IMG/VR virus record: IMGVR_UViG_3300028048_003180
Span: 1-64,000 of that record
Length of the DNA stretch: 64,000 nt
Direction: 5' to 3' (one strand)
DNA from: a virus
Taxonomy: Duplodnaviria; Caudoviricetes
Part shown: piece after piece, positions 3,714 through 24,485 of the stretch
Layout: each line of letters opens with the position of its first letter
Position numbering within the stretch: the stretch's first letter is position 1
Translations under genes and position numbers: made by a program
The notes under the pieces: model-generated
What the model was told of the DNA's origin: nothing
Database searches by the model: none
Seen by the model: the letters and a program-made list of their open reading frames with translations, nothing else

Positions 3714-4068
3714 TTAACCCTCCTAATATTCTCTCTATGTTTGAAAGCTTTTTGTTGACCTCCGCAAAAAGGTCTTCCTTTGGTTCCTGGACAGATTCCT
3801 CTATGGAGTAGCACAGGAACTCCGACAGGCCGTTGTTGCCTAGTTTCTTCAGGTAAAGCTTGCCCGTGTTCGTGTCTGCGAAAATGTTGTATGAAAGTGG
3901 CTCAATCATGGCTGCCTTAGCCTCGTCAATGCTTGTTACGAAGCGGCAGTTAATCTGGGGAGCCTGCGGCTGATGCGGAGGCGGGAACTGCACGTATGGC
4001 TGCGTGTACGCCTGCTGCGCATTGCGGAAATAGAAGTCATTAACCGGGTTCATCTGATATGGTTGCAT
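3574..4068 (-). CDS. Hypothetical protein with Pro/Gln/Tyr-rich N-terminus
   Basis: RBS AAGGAGG before ATG 4068; 3' end overlaps the next ORF by 140 bp. Confidence 0.75.
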   Translation of the reverse strand: MQPYQMNPVNDFYFRNAQQAYTQPYVQFPPPHQPQAPQINCRFVTSIDEAKAAMIEPLSYNIFADTNTGKLYLKKLGNNGLSEFLCYSIEESVQEPKEDLFAEVNKKLSNIERILGGLNESVSNAKQPDGGTPAAVAEQNEPDDEAKPAGVPENAGNGFWQKRR

Positions 4069-17492: not shown

Positions 17493-17933
17493 ATGGGCTA
17501 CATTATTAATACACCTTCATGCACGAACAGTGACAGGGGCATAAAGCCCCAGCAGTCATTTGCCTCAACAAAAAGATGGCTTTCAAATGCCTTTTACCAG
17601 GAACTCAACCGCCATGCGGAGACGGCTTCCGGGGACTACAAGACCAAAGCCCAGCTTATGATAGAAGGCATTGTTGACATGGCCATAGACCCTGAAAAGG
17701 ATGATTACGTAAAGCTTGCGGCATCCAAGTTCATCATAGAGCACCTTGAGGGCAAGGCTGGGGTTGCACAGGAAGAACACAAGGAAACCATGCCTAAGAT
17801 GGTAATCCAGATTGACAAGGTTGACGCAACCATAATCAACAACAATGCGGCAATCAATACAAACCCTGAGCCAAAGTCTGACATTGCGGAGGAAATAGTT
17901 TCTGAAGAAATGTCAGGGGAGGATGAGGAATAA
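17493..17933 (+). CDS. Terminase small subunit (probable)
   Basis: Directly upstream of TerL (TAATG overlap); AASKFIIEHLEGK motif. Confidence 0.65.
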   Translation: MGYIINTPSCTNSDRGIKPQQSFASTKRWLSNAFYQELNRHAETASGDYKTKAQLMIEGIVDMAIDPEKDDYVKLAASKFIIEHLEGKAGVAQEEHKETMPKMVIQIDKVDATIINNNAAINTNPEPKSDIAEEIVSEEMSGEDEE

Positions 17934-19210
17934 TGGCGGACGAAAGGGTTGTGCACGTTACCGCTCCGCAGGGCGAGATAATGTGCTGCAAGAAGAGGTT
18001 CCGCATAGTCAACGCAGGAAGGCGTTTCGGCAAGTCATTCCTCTCAGGCTACGAAATGCTCATGCAGGCGGTCAACAAGAAGGGCTCGAGCGTAGTTTAC
18101 GTTGCCCCTACCCTTCCCGACGCGAGGAACATCATGTGGAGGGGGTGGCTCAAGGAGCATGTACCGCAGGCATACCTGACAAAATCCAATGAGCAGATGA
18201 TGTACATGGAGTTCAAGAACGGCTCCTTCATACGGCTTGCCTCTGCGACTGACCCTGATTCTGTCCGTGGTACGGGTATAGACCTTCTTGTTATAGACGA
18301 GGCCGCGATGATTCAGTCAGGCGACCTCTGGCAGACTGTCCGCCCTAACCTTTCGGACAAATGGCATGACGGGCGGGCACTTATAATTTCAACCCCAAAG
18401 GGCTACAACTGGTTCTACGACCTCTTTGAAGCTGCAAAGCATGATGACGAATGGGGCTGGTTCCAGTACACGACCATACAGGGCGGAAACGTAGACCCGA
18501 AGGAAATCGAGTCCGCCAAGAAAACGATGTCAAGGAAGATGTTCGAGCAGGAGTACCTTGCGTCTTTCGAGACCATGAGCAACCGTGTCTACTTCAACTA
18601 TGACAAGGACAAGAACTCCATTTCAATGCAGGACTGGTATGGAGCGGAAAAGACGGACATCCACGTAGGCATAGACTTCAACGTAAACCCTATGACGGCA
18701 ACGATCTGGGCAATAGACAAGGACCCTGAGCACAATGAGATTGCAGTCTGCTTCGACGAGATTGTTGACAGAAACTCCGATACACAGGCCCTTGCTGATG
18801 AGATTAAGAGAAGGTACCCCGCCTGCCGCGTCAACTGCTACCCTGACCCGACCTGCCGCAAGAGGCAGACGAATGCAGTCGGCGGCGTTACTGACATGGA
18901 CATCCTCCAGAGGAACGGCTTTGACGTGTTCGTTCCCTATGCACCATACGCAACGAGGGACAAGTTCAACTGCGTCAACACAAACCTTTGCAATGCCACC
19001 GGGTTCAGGCGGCTGTACATAGCCTTCGGAAGATGCCCTGAACTCAGGAAGTCTTGGGACGGCTACACATACAAGGACAAGCAGGGTGTAAGCGAGCCGG
19101 ACAAGTCCGGGGGACTGGACCACGTATCGGACTCTGCTGCCTACTTCATAAATTACAAATTCCCGATTAGGGACAGGACTTTGGGAAGGCCTGTCATTCT
19201 CGGAATGTAG
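17933..19210 (+). CDS. terL: Terminase large subunit
   Basis: AGRRFGKS Walker A, LVIDEAA Walker B, ISTPKG, GIDFN and DHVSD nuclease acids. Confidence 0.95.
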   Translation: MADERVVHVTAPQGEIMCCKKRFRIVNAGRRFGKSFLSGYEMLMQAVNKKGSSVVYVAPTLPDARNIMWRGWLKEHVPQAYLTKSNEQMMYMEFKNGSFIRLASATDPDSVRGTGIDLLVIDEAAMIQSGDLWQTVRPNLSDKWHDGRALIISTPKGYNWFYDLFEAAKHDDEWGWFQYTTIQGGNVDPKEIESAKKTMSRKMFEQEYLASFETMSNRVYFNYDKDKNSISMQDWYGAEKTDIHVGIDFNVNPMTATIWAIDKDPEHNEIAVCFDEIVDRNSDTQALADEIKRRYPACRVNCYPDPTCRKRQTNAVGGVTDMDILQRNGFDVFVPYAPYATRDKFNCVNTNLCNATGFRRLYIAFGRCPELRKSWDGYTYKDKQGVSEPDKSGGLDHVSDSAAYFINYKFPIRDRTLGRPVILGM

Positions 19211-19218
19211 GAGGAACT

Positions 19219-20781
19219 ATGGTTACTGAATACCATCCTTATGTTTTGAAAATGGGTGCAAAATGGAAGCTTATCCGTGACTTTGTTGCGGGCGAGCATG
19301 AGATAAAGATGGCTGGGCCTGCCTACCTGCCGATGAAGAGCGGCCAGACGAAGGATGATTACGACAAGTACAAGGCAAGGGCAAAGCCGGGGGACTACAC
19401 CGACCAGGCCCTCAAGTCCATGCACGGGCTCATTTTCCGCCGCACTCCTGTCGTCGAAAAGCCTGATGACGAGCAGCTTGACCTTATTCTGAGCAACTTT
19501 GACCGGGAAGGCTCTTCCCTTTATCAGTTTGCCTCTGACGTTGCAATGGACAACATGCAGACGACCTTCGGGGGAATCCTCGTTGACATGCCGAAGAGTG
19601 AGGGTGTCGTGACTGTGTATGACGCGAAGATGAAGGGAATCCGCCCTTATGCAAGGTATTACCCTGCAGAAAGCATAGTCAACTGGAAGTACAGGGACGT
19701 TAACGGCGTAAGCCAGCTTTCCCTCGTAGTCCTGATTGAGATGGTTGATTCTGAGTCGGGCGATGAATTCAGCCACAACCTTGTCCCCCAGTACAGGGTG
19801 CTTGCGCTTGACGAATCAGGCTACTACCACGTAAGGGTTTTCAGGGAGTTTGACAATTCCGGGAAAAAGACTTTTGAGCAGGTCTCTGACGACTATGTTA
19901 CGATTAGGGGTGAACATATCAAGTACATTCCTTTTGAATTCCTTCCTTTCAAGACACCGGAAAAACCCATGCTTTACGGCCTTGCAGAGCTTCACAAGCA
20001 CTACTACATGCAGTCCGCTGACTATGAGAACGGTGTCCACTGCACGACAATCCCTACAGGTTATGTTACCGGGTATACGCTCGGAAAGAAGCCAGACGGC
20101 TCACCCGAAGAAATCCGTCTTGGGGCTGACTCGTTCCTTAATTTCCCTGATGAGTCTGCAAGGGTCGGTACGCTCGTGTTTGCAGGCGAAGGATTGAACC
20201 ACAGTGAACAGGCACTTGCAAAGACGGCAGAGGAGATAGGTGTCCTCGGCACAAGGGCAATATCCCCTGACAAGGCGATGTCGGAAACAAAGGATGCCGC
20301 CCAGATACACAGGCAGGGGGAGAACTCAAAGCTTGCCACATACGCAAGGAACCTTGCGGAGAAGTTCACGAAGGTATTCCAGATAATGAGCGACTGGGTG
20401 GGTGCAGGAGGCCGCGTCAACATAGAGTTCAACGTTGACTTCGACACAATCGCGTTTGACCCGAATGCAATCAATGCCATTGCAAACCTTTCAAGGGACG
20501 GACGCTACCCGCTCCCATACGTCTACGAAGCACTCAAGAAGGGAGAGTACCTCCCGAACAACTGTACGCTTGAGCAGTTCATTATGCTCATCTCAATTGA
20601 AGCAGCAGGCGTTCCTCCTATCGACGAGTTCAACCTCTACCAGCAGATGCGTGAGGGCAAGAAGATTACAGTCCCGGCATCAAAGCCTCTTGCTGACGAC
20701 AGCGGAATGGAAGAGGAAGAAGATGAAGATGATGAAGACGAGGAAAAGAAAAAGCCGGAAGACAAGGAAGGGGATGAGTGA
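19219..20781 (+). CDS. Portal protein (DUF4055-like)
   Basis: Position after TerL; YLP...YDKYKARA; HYYMQSADYE. Confidence 0.85.
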   Translation: MVTEYHPYVLKMGAKWKLIRDFVAGEHEIKMAGPAYLPMKSGQTKDDYDKYKARAKPGDYTDQALKSMHGLIFRRTPVVEKPDDEQLDLILSNFDREGSSLYQFASDVAMDNMQTTFGGILVDMPKSEGVVTVYDAKMKGIRPYARYYPAESIVNWKYRDVNGVSQLSLVVLIEMVDSESGDEFSHNLVPQYRVLALDESGYYHVRVFREFDNSGKKTFEQVSDDYVTIRGEHIKYIPFEFLPFKTPEKPMLYGLAELHKHYYMQSADYENGVHCTTIPTGYVTGYTLGKKPDGSPEEIRLGADSFLNFPDESARVGTLVFAGEGLNHSEQALAKTAEEIGVLGTRAISPDKAMSETKDAAQIHRQGENSKLATYARNLAEKFTKVFQIMSDWVGAGGRVNIEFNVDFDTIAFDPNAINAIANLSRDGRYPLPYVYEALKKGEYLPNNCTLEQFIMLISIEAAGVPPIDEFNLYQQMREGKKITVPASKPLADDSGMEEEEDEDDEDEEKKKPEDKEGDE

Positions 20782-20972
20782 TGGAATGCGAGGATGAGTT
20801 TTCCAAGCTCATAAACAAATCCCTTGGCCTTGCCCAGAACGTTGACAGGAGCAAGCTCGACGAAGATGTTCTGGAGCAGGTCGCAAGGAGGGAGAACCTT
20901 GTCCGTGTCCTGGAGTCAAGGGGTAAGACCCCCTCCGAGATAAGGCGGTTCATTAAGGAGAAATTCTTTTGA
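20778..20972 (+). CDS. Small hypothetical protein
   Basis: Coupled between portal and MuF. Confidence 0.55.
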   Translation: MMECEDEFSKLINKSLGLAQNVDRSKLDEDVLEQVARRENLVRVLESRGKTPSEIRRFIKEKFF

Positions 20973-22390
20973 CTTACGACGAATACTTTGACAGGTACAC
21001 GAAGCACCTCATAGACACTGAGTTTTACGCACAGTCTTGGGAGAACAGACTCAACTCCCTTACCGAAAGGGTCAAGAAGCGGCTCAAGGACGTAATGGAA
21101 GGGTATGGCGTAATCACGTCAAAAGGCAAGTACCTCCAGTTTGCGAAGGAAGTGTCGGAAGCCATAGACAGTGAGGTTGACCCGTTCGCAAAGCTGTTTG
21201 ACAGGGAGGAAAGGAAGCAGTCGGAGAAGGAATCGGACTGGCTCGGAAAGCTGCTCAAGGCTTTTTTAGGGATAACGGCTGTCATGGCTGCGATGAACTG
21301 GAGAAAGCTCAAATCCCAGCCTTTCGGAAAGTACAAGGACAGGAAGGATTTCTTTGAATCCTACAAGACCAAGATGGAGAAGGCAGTAACGCTCCCTGCA
21401 TGGTCTTCCTATATCTTCGGAAGCGGCCTTTCGACGGTCAGTGCCGAGATGGACAGGACGTTCAATAAGATAGGCAAGGAAGCCGGGGCTGATGCACACC
21501 TTTCGGTCACTGCAAACCAGAGGAACACCCAGAGGCTCTTGCTTGAAGACTTGAGGGGGACGTCATACGTCTACGTTGCAATTCTTGACGATAAGACGTG
21601 TCCTGTCTGCGGCGTATACTCAGGCACTGTCTATGACGACCTTACGGAAGCTCCCCTTCTTCCAATCCATTACAGCTGTAGGTGCTACTACCTGCCAATA
21701 AAGAAGGGTGACAAGTTCAGGCAGCCAAGCTATAGCGAGTGGTTTGAAAGGCAGAGTGAGGAAGTCAAGAGGAAGATTCTCGGCCCGGCAAGGTTCAGGC
21801 TCTACAAGTCCGGTGTCCAGTTCAGCGAGTTCACCTCGAAGGGGCATAAGCTGACGCTGCAGGAACTGTTTAGCGACAAGGTTGCCCTGTCAAAGCCGAA
21901 GGTGCCATACGGAATGGGATGGGAGACGGAAAGAATTACAAAGTCAGCCTCAGTCCATATAGCAAAAGAACGCATTGCAGACGGTACAAAAGATCCTCTT
22001 GTCTACAGTTCCGACAAGATGATGGCGAAGACTCTTGCAAGGGAAACAGGAAAGGATGTTTGGCTTCTGTCAGAAAGAAACAAAGGGAGTGTAAATCCAG
22101 ATGCTTTTATTGACGGACGGACTATAGAGTTTAAGCATGTAAGGGGAGGCAGAAGAAAAGTAGGATTAAATGCCTGCCGTTCATTGCTTCAGTCAGAAAA
22201 TGTATTTTTGTATGTAGAACAAAATATACCTGAAAAGTCTTGTTTAAGCGCGATAAAAGGTGCTTTGTACAACACTCGCCAACAGGCAGTAAAAAACAAA
22301 ATACAGTTTATTGAACCTAATCCAGATGGATTAATTTTTATTTATACAGAGGGAAAGCTGAGTCAGTTTACTTGGAAGGATGTACTTTAA
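20969..22390 (+). CDS. MuF (SPP1 gp7-like) head protein fused to a C-terminal PD-(D/E)xK nuclease resembling the CdiA tRNase domain
   Basis: AILDDKTCPVC...PIHYSCRC MuF motif; C-terminal NPDAFIDGRTIEFK. Confidence 0.8.
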   Translation: MTYDEYFDRYTKHLIDTEFYAQSWENRLNSLTERVKKRLKDVMEGYGVITSKGKYLQFAKEVSEAIDSEVDPFAKLFDREERKQSEKESDWLGKLLKAFLGITAVMAAMNWRKLKSQPFGKYKDRKDFFESYKTKMEKAVTLPAWSSYIFGSGLSTVSAEMDRTFNKIGKEAGADAHLSVTANQRNTQRLLLEDLRGTSYVYVAILDDKTCPVCGVYSGTVYDDLTEAPLLPIHYSCRCYYLPIKKGDKFRQPSYSEWFERQSEEVKRKILGPARFRLYKSGVQFSEFTSKGHKLTLQELFSDKVALSKPKVPYGMGWETERITKSASVHIAKERIADGTKDPLVYSSDKMMAKTLARETGKDVWLLSERNKGSVNPDAFIDGRTIEFKHVRGGRRKVGLNACRSLLQSENVFLYVEQNIPEKSCLSAIKGALYNTRQQAVKNKIQFIEPNPDGLIFIYTEGKLSQFTWKDVL

Positions 22391-22454
22391 AAAAAATCCG
22401 GGGAGCTAAGCTCCCCTTCGGCTACCCAGCAAGAGACTAGCTCTTACCCGGTTA
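22389..22454 (-). ncRNA. Putative ~66-nt structured small RNA convergent on the MuF-nuclease gene
   Basis: Promoter TTGACT-17-TATTAT (22489-22461), two hairpins, T8 tail. Confidence 0.5.
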
Positions 22455-22500
22455 ATTATTATAATATTGTAAATATGCCTAACAGTCAAGGAAAAAACAG

Positions 22501-22538
22501 TCAAAAATAAAAAAAAATCCCCAAGTAAAAACTTGGGG
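22501..22538 (-). terminator. Terminator of the 22550-22921 gene
   Basis: CCCCAAGT/ACTTGGGG hairpin with T-run on the minus strand. Confidence 0.7.
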
Positions 22539-22549
22539 CATCACTTTTG

Positions 22550-22921
22550 CTATTTACCCGGGACAGGCTCTAAGGTTACGGTATTGTTGTCAAGGGATTT
22601 TATCACAAACGTTCTTTCTACAGGCCAGTTTCCATCGAATTGCAACAGTTCAATCTCATCTCCGACTTTAATAATGTAAGTAAATGTTACGTCAGACGAA
22701 TTGATTTGCATTTCGTACAAACCCTTAGAGTCACCGGGAACCTTGGCTATCTTTGCTACAAATGGAGCAGATTTATTTTTTAAATATTTAAATCCTGATG
22801 GTAAATACCAAGTAGTCTGCTTCCCTTCATTGCTACCTGCGAGTTCTCCAGTTTTCCATGTCAAACCGAATGAAAAGCTGCAAATCATTGACACAACAAA
22901 CAAGATAATAATCTTTTTCAT
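22550..22921 (-). CDS. Secreted protein, AT-rich moron
   Basis: MKKIIILFVVSMICSFSFG signal peptide; RBS AGGAG; own terminator. Confidence 0.75.
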   Translation of the reverse strand: MKKIIILFVVSMICSFSFGLTWKTGELAGSNEGKQTTWYLPSGFKYLKNKSAPFVAKIAKVPGDSKGLYEMQINSSDVTFTYIIKVGDEIELLQFDGNWPVERTFVIKSLDNNTVTLEPVPGK

Positions 22922-23043
22922 CTTTTCTTTCTCCTAAAAAAATAGTTTTAAGTATTCTTTTATATTATATTATTAGTTTTATTATTTTTCAATATGTTTT
23001 TTTTAAGTCAACAAAAACAAAGATGGGGAGTCAGTCATTTTCT

Positions 23044-23072
23044 TTGCCAAAAAAAAATACCGTATCTAAGAT
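23044..23072 (+). promoter_or_regulatory. A-tract promoter
   Basis: TTGCCA-17-TAAGAT, A9 run. Confidence 0.6.
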
Positions 23073-23123
23073 ATTTTTCAGAGATACTGGGTAGATTGTC
23101 ACTAGGCCCAAGGAGGTATATCA

Positions 23124-23348
23124 ATGATTTGGCAGGATTACATAGCCTACCCGGACGATAATGTGCCGGACATAGGGAGCATTGAGCCAATTAGCAATGA
23201 CAATGGCGTAAGGGAATACCGCCTCCTTGCAGTAGACCTGGACAAACTTAATTCTACAGTTACATATTGCGGCGACGGCTCTACGGCTTACGTGACCGAC
23301 ACTGGTGCCATCTACATGTTCCAGGACGGGACATGGTATGAAATGTAA
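23124..23348 (+). CDS. Small virion-accessory protein
   Basis: GSTAYVTDTGAIYMF...W motif; RBS AAGGAGG. Confidence 0.65.
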   Translation: MIWQDYIAYPDDNVPDIGSIEPISNDNGVREYRLLAVDLDKLNSTVTYCGDGSTAYVTDTGAIYMFQDGTWYEM

Positions 23349-23360
23349 GGGGGTGGCCCG

Positions 23361-24485
23361 ATGGATGTCGTTACCCTGGCTGTGGCCAAAAAATATTGTG
23401 ATGATTCGATACTGGGAACGGCTGGCCCTATAAGGGGAAAGCCCTGTACAATCAGCTCCATAGAACCCATTGAGGGCGGGAACAAGGTTACGTACCTCTG
23501 GACGGACAATGCAGGCTCAACCCGCACGTCGGTAATGATTGTCATGGACGGTCAGGACGGGTCTGACGTTACCGCCATAGAGATAGACGAGAACAACCAT
23601 TTCGTATTCACTTTCAGTGACGGAAGGACTATAGACGGCGGGGAGGTTCCCTGCGTGGACTCTGCCGACAAGGTTGCCTACGAGAACGAGGGGCACCCGG
23701 AAATAGAAACGGTCAAGGATGCCTTGGACGCTGCCCTTCTTGGCGGTGCGAACCTTCAGAACCCGATAACGGTTTCAAACCCTGTGGGCTCTGCAACAAG
23801 CGGTAAGACCTATGCAAAGGGAACCCCGCTTGAGACGCTCATAAAAGACATGCTCGTAAAGGAAGTAGCCCCAGGCCTTACGCTTACAATCCAGCCTGCG
23901 ACAACCCTTTATGACGTTGTGGAGGACACAGTGTCAGCCGTGCTTATGAAGGCAGCCGTAACAAAGAACACTTACGACTTGTCAAAGGTGGACTTCTACC
24001 TTGACGGTGCCCTCAAGCATACGGAGAATATTTCTACACCCGGCACATACCAGTTCAACATGACGTGGACGCTGCCGACAAACTCAAACTTCACGCTCAA
24101 GGCAGTTGTTGCCGACCGCAAGCCGGGAGTGCCGATGAGCACTTCAAAGGAAATAGCGGTCAAATTCGTGGGCAAGTCATACTATGGAACCGTTGACTCC
24201 ACTGTTGGAGAGCCTACGGAGGCAATCATAAAGTCGCTTCAGAACAGGACGCTCAAGGACACGAAGAACCTTACCTACAGCGGAATCAATATGGACTACG
24301 GAAAGGTTGTTTACGCCTACCCTGCTTCCTTTGGCAACCTAAGCTCAATCAAGGACGAAATCAATAATTTTTCATACATCGAGTCCTTTACGAAGTATGC
24401 AAAGCAAATTGACGGCATAGCATATAATGTATATGTCCAGAATGAGCCAACTCAGGCAATAGATGTCCAACTTGTGTTTAGATAA
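23361..24485 (+). CDS. Virion accessory / fibre-like protein
   Basis: Ig-like region; C-terminal YYG...YAYPASFG domain shared with 25860-27560. Confidence 0.65.
   Translation: MDVVTLAVAKKYCDDSILGTAGPIRGKPCTISSIEPIEGGNKVTYLWTDNAGSTRTSVMIVMDGQDGSDVTAIEIDENNHFVFTFSDGRTIDGGEVPCVDSADKVAYENEGHPEIETVKDALDAALLGGANLQNPITVSNPVGSATSGKTYAKGTPLETLIKDMLVKEVAPGLTLTIQPATTLYDVVEDTVSAVLMKAAVTKNTYDLSKVDFYLDGALKHTENISTPGTYQFNMTWTLPTNSNFTLKAVVADRKPGVPMSTSKEIAVKFVGKSYYGTVDSTVGEPTEAIIKSLQNRTLKDTKNLTYSGINMDYGKVVYAYPASFGNLSSIKDEINNFSYIESFTKYAKQIDGIAYNVYVQNEPTQAIDVQLVFR

Follow-up and report, generated by a model that had tools for sequence, protein, structure and literature searches.

A conserved convergent small-RNA gene beside a MuF-fused CdiA-CT-type nuclease, a candidate RNA antidote in a provirus

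Polymorphic toxins, such as those of contact-dependent inhibition (CDI), Rhs proteins, effectors of type VI and type VII secretion systems and MuF proteins, are found and annotated on the premise that a small immunity protein is encoded after the toxin domain. We analysed a locus in which a gene for a small RNA takes the place of the immunity gene. It is located in 64,000 nucleotides (nt) of viral DNA (Duplodnaviria; Caudoviricetes), positions 1 to 64,000 of the IMG/VR record IMGVR_UViG_3300028048_003180, a 108.7-kb provirus. This whole stretch is called the window, and all coordinates refer to it. The gene in question encodes a MuF-nuclease fusion of 473 amino acids (aa; 20969-22390, + strand) and is followed by a convergent gene for an RNA of about 65 nt with its own predicted promoter and terminator.

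The closest described proteins are the MuF polymorphic toxins, in which an N-terminal MuF module encoded beside portal and terminase genes carries a swappable C-terminal toxin domain that is common to other families, including the 1026b CdiA-2 class (cd13442), and which are gained and lost like cassettes between sister phages (Jamet 2017, PMC5576092). The window protein shares these traits and can be added to the known MuF polymorphic toxins as a further member with a 1026b-type domain. In contrast to the described members, it is not followed by a conserved open reading frame (ORF); the slot is filled by the convergent small-RNA gene. The toxin domain resembles that of the CdiA-CT/CdiI pair of Burkholderia pseudomallei 1026b (PDB 4G6V; PMC9086364) in its PD-(D/E)xK fold and NPD motif. 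The 1026b CdiA-CT toxin is a nuclease acting on the acceptor stem of tRNA-Ala, and this tRNA cleavage is neutralised by CdiI, which occludes the active site (PMC9086364); the window domain is likened to it by predicted fold, the sequence identity being 17-18%. Furthermore, delivery depends on a type V secretion protein there and would depend on a phage head protein here, and the neutralising factor is the protein CdiI there and presumably an RNA here.

Regarding the RNA, the locus is similar to the type I pairs bsrG/SR4 and yonT/SR6 of Bacillus subtilis prophages, in which a short structured antisense RNA is encoded convergently, has its own promoter and terminator and is complementary to the 3′ part of the toxin transcript (PMC3834814, PMC5848175, PMC6562991). 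As in type I systems, the window RNA would be antisense to the toxin mRNA, its gene lying inside the presumed 3′ untranslated region (UTR) of a transcript whose 3′ end is deduced. However, the toxins of these pairs are small hydrophobic peptides, which is typical but not universal for type I, whereas here a soluble nuclease domain of ~170 aa ends a 473-aa structural protein. Moreover, their RNAs overlap the coding region or act on the ribosome-binding site, while the window RNA covers the stop codon and the 3′ UTR only. A prophage nuclease toxin countered by a small RNA is known from RalR/RalA of the E. coli rac prophage (PMC4041452), but RalR, a small DNase that stands alone, comes from a different family.

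In the type III system ToxIN the nuclease toxin is neutralised by direct RNA binding (PMC4147584), and by analogy the same is proposed here. A preprint reports that a single non-repeat phage RNA neutralises the toxin by direct binding in the AbiF/RCd22 pair of a C. difficile phage, AbiF belonging to the Abi_2/AbiD/F family tied to ancestral Cas13 (bioRxiv 10.1101/2025.04.15.648962). ToxI-type antitoxins are tandem repeats encoded upstream on the strand of the toxin and processed by it. In contrast, the window locus has no such upstream same-strand repeats, and its RNA is a single-copy, repeat-free, convergent RNA encoded downstream. ToxN is not known to be a PD-(D/E)xK enzyme. Lambda OOP is a short phage antisense RNA that has its own promoter and terminator, is convergent and overlaps the 3′ end of cII; unlike the window RNA, it targets a regulator of lysis and lysogeny, overlaps the coding region substantially and has no tie to a toxin cassette. 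No described system known to us or found in the literature searched pairs such a toxin with a convergently encoded RNA at the site of the immunity gene.

Anatomy of the MuF-nuclease gene and the small-RNA gene

The elements of the locus, with the basis of each assignment in brackets, are as follows.

20969..21871, + strand: MuF / head-morphogenesis module, aa 1-301 (PHROG 241, Pfam, gene order, homology limit)
21872..22390, + strand: CdiA-CT(1026b)-like PD-(D/E)xK nuclease domain, aa 302-473 plus stop (model, structure match, Pfam, motif)
22484..22489, - strand: -35 box TTGACT of the RNA gene (promoter scan; TTGNNN in register in all 10 loci)
22461..22466, - strand: -10 box TATTAT (promoter scan; 17-nt spacer)
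22389..22453, - strand: predicted small RNA of about 62-65 nt (start placed near A22453/A22452; end in the T-run)
22424..22452, - strand: stem-loop 1 (3 bp, 1x1 mismatch, 8 bp, 5-nt loop; conserved G.U pairs)
22417..22423, - strand: single-stranded linker AGCCGAA, consensus GACCGAA (7 nt, joins stem-loop 1 to the terminator)
22389..22416, - strand: intrinsic terminator (hairpin GGGGAGC-TTA-GCTCCCC at 22416-22400, GGA, T8 at 22396-22389)

A sequence-only reading of the locus had named the ORF, the promoter, the stem-loop, the terminator and a T8 run over the stop codon, and sequence scans and folding recovered all of these elements in place. Residues 1-301 of the protein matched PHROG 241 'head morphogenesis' (E 8e-28) and, weakly and under the cut-off, Pfam Phage_Mu_F (E 0.009). 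This N-terminal module follows the terminase gene and a DUF4055 portal gene, as in MuF polymorphic toxins. The 473-aa protein, whose stop codon TAA occupies 22388-22390, contains the motif NPDAFIDGRTIEFK, with E...NPD...ExK within the last ~170 residues.

An AlphaFold (AF2) model of the nuclease domain had a mean predicted local distance difference test score (pLDDT) of 92.5, and its best Foldseek match was 4g6v_A, the B. pseudomallei 1026b CdiA-CT (prob 1.0). With VIA, 122 of 132 residues were aligned to this entry (Z 11.3, root-mean-square deviation 3.1 Å), compared to Z 5.8 for the runner-up entry. A profile search of PDB sequences and the ESM Atlas agreed with the 1026b CdiA-CT assignment. 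Pfam CdiA_C (PF18451) matched 8 of 13 family members with a best E of 2e-7, and the relative P0022 carries PF18451 in a precomputed table. An alignment of 13 sequences shows D74 and K85 in every member, E65 and N72 in nearly every member and either E or D at position 83; the catalytic E...PD...ExK motif is intact in the window domain. On the basis of the model and these matches, ORF 20969-22390 is a MuF protein with a fused CdiA-CT-type PD-(D/E)xK nuclease, as the sequence-only reading had proposed. Its description of the C-terminal part as AT-rich likewise agrees with a GC content of 0.36 in 22001-23000 versus about 0.51 in the flanks.

Between the stop codon of the MuF-nuclease gene and the minus-strand gene at 22550-22921 the window contains no + strand ORF, and the ORF list thereby bore out the absence of a same-strand ORF that had been pointed out before. 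The promoter of the RNA gene is a near-consensus sigma-70 promoter (10 of 12 positions), and the T8 run of the terminator overlaps the stop codon of the MuF-nuclease gene. The 76-nt minus-strand stretch folds with -29.1 kcal/mol (z = -3.3), a value matched by 0 of 200 shuffles, while the + strand fold of the same stretch reached z = -1.5. The first + strand terminator candidate past MuF is the hairpin at 22519-22538, so that the MuF mRNA should read through the RNA gene. The small RNA is located between two terminators and would thus be an independent unit.

For the RNA, a cmscan of positions 20000-24000 against Rfam (E up to 10) returned no family; the only match nearby was a sub-threshold terminator-like one at 22510-22563. 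ARAGORN detected neither a tRNA nor a tmRNA in the window. A small peptide encoded in the RNA was considered and rejected: there is no AUG and no ribosome-binding site, and the cross-locus 'ORF' similarities fall on inconsistent strands. ToxI-like tandem repeats were not found in the RNA. The sole repeat is a tandem duplication of 15 bp at 22481-22512 (2.1 copies), which doubles the -35 TTGACT and whose second copy is degenerate in L002, one of the related loci described below.

Conservation of the RNA and its linkage to the nuclease domain

A search for a conserved promoter and a covarying RNA downstream of homologous nuclease domains, proposed with the sequence-only reading as its check, was positive. 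RNA-bearing loci comprise the window and nine other independent loci with nuclease domains of 41-62% identity, which implies that they are not recent copies of one sequence. The RNA is located directly 3′ of the stop codon in L003, L004 and L005 (domain identity 50-56%) and in L002 (99%). A covariance model built from these window-type MuF loci (L002-L005) matched the window at 22386-22457(-) with 81.9 bits, its only strong match in the 108.7-kb record. Used to find more loci, the model detected the RNA after a Phage_min_cap2-type gene in L040 and L041 (60 bits), after a 176-aa gene in L043 (51 bits) and in one extra locus from JGI metagenomes, L042 (51 bits; backbone not typed). A second model was run with filters off on distant loci, and its best match in L034 (19.4 bits, E 6e-5), L044 and L037 was at the expected site and strand. 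In L034 and L044, the RNA fold consists of 3 bp and 8-9 bp separated by a 1x1 mismatch, then a short linker and the terminator; the stem-loop 1 architecture of the window is found in L003 and L043 as well as in these two.

Covariation was counted over seven distinct divergent RNA sequences with 139 pair cells. Standard pairs occupy 97.1% of the cells, compared to about 50% in a slid-partner control, and compensatory double changes were found at 10 of the 20 pairs. None of 500 shuffles reached the observed pairing or the observed covariation score. Helix 1 consists of 13 pairs, six of them with compensatory changes (97.8% of cells paired), and helix 2, the terminator, of seven pairs, four of them with such changes. 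G.U pairs account for 31 of the paired cells; a single U.G pair is kept in all sequences and three others in nearly all. Driven by these wobble pairs, 135 of 139 cells are paired on the minus strand versus 107 on the plus strand, indicating that the minus strand is the transcribed one; a plus-strand RNA, which has the weaker fold as well, was rejected. The unpaired CCGAA of the linker is present in six of the seven aligned RNAs despite saturated flanks. Loops vary in sequence and length.

The promoter was found in 10 of 10 loci with 8-11 of 12 consensus positions, in fixed register and with variable spacer sequence. In all ten, the -10 box terminates 1-2 nt ahead of the position at which the model starts; elsewhere than in the window it reads TATCAT, TATAAT, CATAAT, TACACT, TAGAAT, TATAGT, TACAGT or TATATT at the same distance to the RNA. 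In nine of the ten loci, there is an overlap of 3-6 nt between the stop codon and the model match, whose end falls in the T-tail. Mean nucleotide identity is 66% for the RNA versus 45% for synonymous third positions and 46% for adjoining non-coding DNA. Identity above that of saturated neutral sites points to purifying selection on the RNA.

AT-rich DNA often contains sites that resemble promoters or terminators, and the region has seven promoter-like sites versus 3.9 expected. A chance promoter-like site beside ordinary terminators, with no RNA gene at all, might therefore be considered. Against this, the promoter register, the compensated structure and the position over the stop codon are kept in ten loci with saturated synonymous sites. 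Moreover, a degenerate RNA pattern hit 28 unrelated loci in genome contigs, all by chance, and the covariance model gave no false match in any of them. We assign an almost negligible probability to the chance explanation. By comparative criteria, the convergent small-RNA gene is real.

The nuclease domain occurs on three head-protein backbones, namely DUF4055-portal/MuF (with the RNA in the window and L002-L005), Phage_min_cap2 and Phage_Mu_F with Portal_Mu. The RNA was found beside the nuclease on all three and beside stand-alone genes, in each such locus as the top model match at the expected place and strand. A diverged RNA follows the Phage_Mu_F gene of L034 on the Portal_Mu backbone, and another follows a stand-alone 196-aa gene in L044, which is outside any head module between a T5orf172 gene and a gene for a Lon-like protease. 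The sister phages L045 and L046 from IMG/VR, whose portals are 97% and 95% identical to that of the window, have a 308-aa MuF protein that ends at the start of the nuclease domain, and they have neither this domain nor the RNA. Homology of this protein to the window stops at 21871, where an insertion begins:

21872..23037, no strand: inserted low-GC block with the nuclease domain, the RNA gene and a 123-aa gene (blastn breakpoints; GC 0.36)

The blastn breakpoints are 21871/23038 against L045 and 21871/23039 against L046, and the block stands in place of 25 bp of L045. Sequence comparison thus indicates that the RNA is co-inherited with the nuclease domain rather than with the phage backbone.

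For a protein immunity gene, we compared all ORFs of at least 25 aa, all against all, from 0.9 kb upstream to 1.5 kb downstream of the nuclease genes of 11 loci. No ORF family was common to these neighbourhoods except the portal and shadow ORFs over the RNA. An ORF of less than 150 aa immediately downstream, by which MuF polymorphic toxins are recognised, is thus lacking: the window has no same-strand ORF there and the 11 loci have no common family. Protection might still come from a protein, with the RNA being incidental. Candidates are a 64-aa ORF upstream of the MuF-nuclease gene, the 123-aa product of the inserted block, a 77-aa ORF of L002 or a gene elsewhere in phage or host. In favour of a protein, L002, whose nuclease is 99% identical, has the extra 77-aa + strand ORF downstream of the RNA; this ORF is missing from the window, however, where the nuclease is intact. 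L045 and L046 contain the 64-aa ORF although they have no nuclease domain, and L003-L005, which have one, lack this ORF. Among the nuclease loci, the 123-aa product, with its signal peptide, was found in the window and L002 only. Neither of the two protein protectors named as alternatives in the sequence-only reading (20778-20972 and 22550-22921) therefore tracks the nuclease across loci, and a protein protector appears very improbable.

Candidate antidote role of the RNA

An RNA antidote is the best-supported reading of a conserved RNA beside the nuclease, as judged from the comparative data. We consider it somewhat probable that window 21872-22489 is a two-part toxin cassette in which the RNA serves as antidote of the nuclease. 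The first part would be the CdiA-CT(1026b)-like nuclease fused in frame to the MuF protein, and the second the convergent ~65-nt RNA, transcribed from its own strong sigma-70-type promoter up to its own terminator in the usual slot of the immunity gene. We infer transcription, toxicity, neutralisation, mode of action and virion delivery from the layout and from described relatives. The sequence-only reading had proposed an RNA antitoxin; the conserved RNA gene and its co-inheritance with the nuclease strengthen this proposal, and the antitoxin role itself is still deduced, as the best-supported one.

Other functions can be attributed to an RNA gene in this position. It might act on the cassette in cis, as an antisense regulator or an insulator, and offer no protection; it would then tune the stability of the 3′ end of the MuF or late transcript, or stop and buffer convergent transcription at a hot spot for morons. 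In this case the nuclease would do without immunity, either because it is inactive before ejection or because it is tolerated in lytic growth. The RNA is fully complementary to a read-through + strand transcript, the site is an insertion hot spot, and in both the window and L034 a bidirectional terminator immediately precedes the RNA promoter. Lambda OOP is one precedent, and the 3′-overlapping antisense RNAs of B. subtilis prophages are others (PMC5848175, PMC3834814). However, the RNA tracks the nuclease over three head-protein backbones and one non-head context and is absent at the same site in nuclease-less sister phages, and the conserved unpaired motif and wobble pairs would be superfluous for such a role. 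We regard it as quite unlikely.

The same linkage and conservation would also be seen if the RNA worked together with the nuclease instead of inhibiting it, either as a processed substrate, as a cofactor for specificity or guidance or as a packaged and ejected cargo. Relatives of the domain bind structured RNA 1:1 (PMC9086364), and the ToxIN toxin processes its own RNA partner (PMC4147584). On the other hand, there is no guide-like variable segment, the variable parts being compensated helices and short loops, and the convergent layout with an independent constitutive-type promoter fits antidote genes better than cofactor genes. Moreover, an RNA cofactor is not known to us for any PD-(D/E)xK nuclease of this class. 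A partner function is distinctly improbable.

If the RNA is an antidote, it could act in two ways. In the first, which we put forward tentatively, it would bind the nuclease as a pseudo-substrate and block it in a type III-like manner. An abundant, stable and structured RNA would occupy the nuclease domain while the MuF-toxin is still made and assembled in producer cells or lysogens, and the toxin would become active solely where the RNA is absent. In the second, which is somewhat unlikely, the RNA would pair with the complementary 3′ UTR of the toxin mRNA and trigger its decay in a type I-like or lambda-OOP-like manner. No + strand terminator is present between stop codon and RNA promoter in the window, L004, L034, L040 and L044, and + strand terminator candidates follow shortly after this promoter. 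The RNA should therefore be fully complementary to the 3′ UTR of the toxin mRNA, with its 3′ end deduced in this way, and this favours the antisense mode.

Direct binding is nevertheless favoured over antisense pairing, for several reasons. The CCGAA linker and the wobble pairs are kept while the loops vary, which complementarity alone does not need. Relatives of the enzyme bind structured RNA (PMC9086364). Decay of the mRNA would also remove the MuF protein needed for head assembly. Finally, the RNA lacks complementarity to start regions: in nine loci, its duplex energies with the start regions of the nuclease-bearing genes were no better than those of shuffles (z -2.0 to +1.4). As a speculation, the RNA might mimic a tRNA acceptor helix, with its long helix containing conserved G.U pairs and, 3′ of it, the unpaired ...ACC/GCC-GAA tail, a resemblance without model-based support since Rfam and ARAGORN gave no match. 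It is possible, though doubtful, that the locus is the first polymorphic-toxin cassette with an RNA immunity factor, a ~65-nt non-repeat convergent RNA acting as active-site pseudo-substrate of a CdiA-CT-type tRNase. Silent in producer cells and lysogens, the MuF-toxin delivered with the virion would be active in a newly infected cell up to the time at which the RNA is made from the incoming genome.

Several points weigh against an RNA antidote. The phage may need no immunity if the domain is inactive until release from the capsid. A PD-(D/E)xK toxin with an RNA antitoxin was not found in the literature searched, nor do we know of one. The CdiA_C score of the window domain (21.5 bits) is lower than the gathering cut-off of 26.6. 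The domain is rare, with 36 relatives detected by phmmer among 1.84 billion cluster representatives, so that the sample is small, about ten independent loci. In L038, the most distant homologue examined (31% identity), the RNA was not detected, and the convergent RNAs of L037 and L047 appear dissimilar to it. Use of the promoter by a sigma-70-type polymerase is, in turn, something we infer from the conserved -35 and -10 boxes; strong Shine-Dalgarno sites together with these boxes fit a sigma-70-type host.

If the antidote function holds true, RNA antitoxins would extend to PD-(D/E)xK nucleases and to presumed virion-carried proteins. The RNA would represent a new class of antitoxins for PD-(D/E)xK toxins, a new way for phages to carry immunity and a natural RNA inhibitor of a tRNase-like enzyme. 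'Orphan' toxin domains without an immunity ORF may then not be orphans, as immunity could hide in non-coding DNA. With about 620 bp the module is compact and thus open to direct expression of the toxin in the presence or absence of the RNA. Viromes can be searched for more members with the covariance model from this analysis.

Neighbouring genes and further observations

The cassette is flanked by the following features.

17933-19210: terminase gene, upstream of the portal gene
19219-20781: DUF4055 portal gene, between the terminase gene and the 64-aa ORF
20778-20972: 64-aa ORF, between the portal and MuF-nuclease genes
22519..22538, flagged on both strands: bidirectional terminator-like hairpin, ending the minus-strand transcript of the 123-aa gene
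22550..22921, - strand: gene of the 123-aa protein (signal peptide, own promoter; in the inserted block, outside the conserved module)

GenBank phages gave no DNA match to the window and no tblastn match to the nuclease domain, and all their portal matches had less than 31% identity. No match was obtained in scans of IMG/VR, whether the query was the nuclease domain, the family alignment, either of two distant members or either of two RNA patterns.

The junction of MuF and the next late gene is an insertion hot spot, occupied by the block at 21872-23037 in the window and by other sequences in L046 and L002. L046 has a different insert of 761 bp with a 208-aa ORF (L046:6639-7399). In L002, the extra 77-aa ORF with its own terminator is located between the RNA promoter and the 123-aa gene (L002:2030-2355). 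The promoter of the 123-aa gene is near-consensus (22992-22964, -; 11 of 12 positions), and its product had no match in Pfam or other families. With signal peptide, own promoter and bidirectional terminator, this gene resembles an accessory gene of the lysogenic-conversion type.

Further observations concern relatives of the nuclease. P0008, a protein of 308 aa with a nuclease domain of 56% identity, starts with an intein-like C-terminal block (...VLHNC), and this sequence suggests a MuF-nuclease gene split by an intein. Stand-alone distant nuclease homologues were observed in defence-like neighbourhoods (L044:456-3872 and P0024); in the P0024 contigs, the gene is directly upstream of a Cas3-like HD-helicase gene. 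In L037, where the nuclease has 35% identity, a different RNA body with the same promoter and terminator layout was found at 3881-3952 (-), and it contains GAGTTCGAGTCTC, a motif similar to the T-loop of tRNAs. In L047, the locus of P0022 with its Pfam CdiA_C domain, a minus-strand hairpin with a T-run straddles the stop codon (L047:780-878); structured sequence comes next, and the contig ends ahead of any visible promoter. The motif TTGCTAAAAAAA(A)T is located ahead of genes downstream of the cassette in L003 (3320-3335), L004 (4690-4705 and 4995-5010) and L005 (3193-3208).

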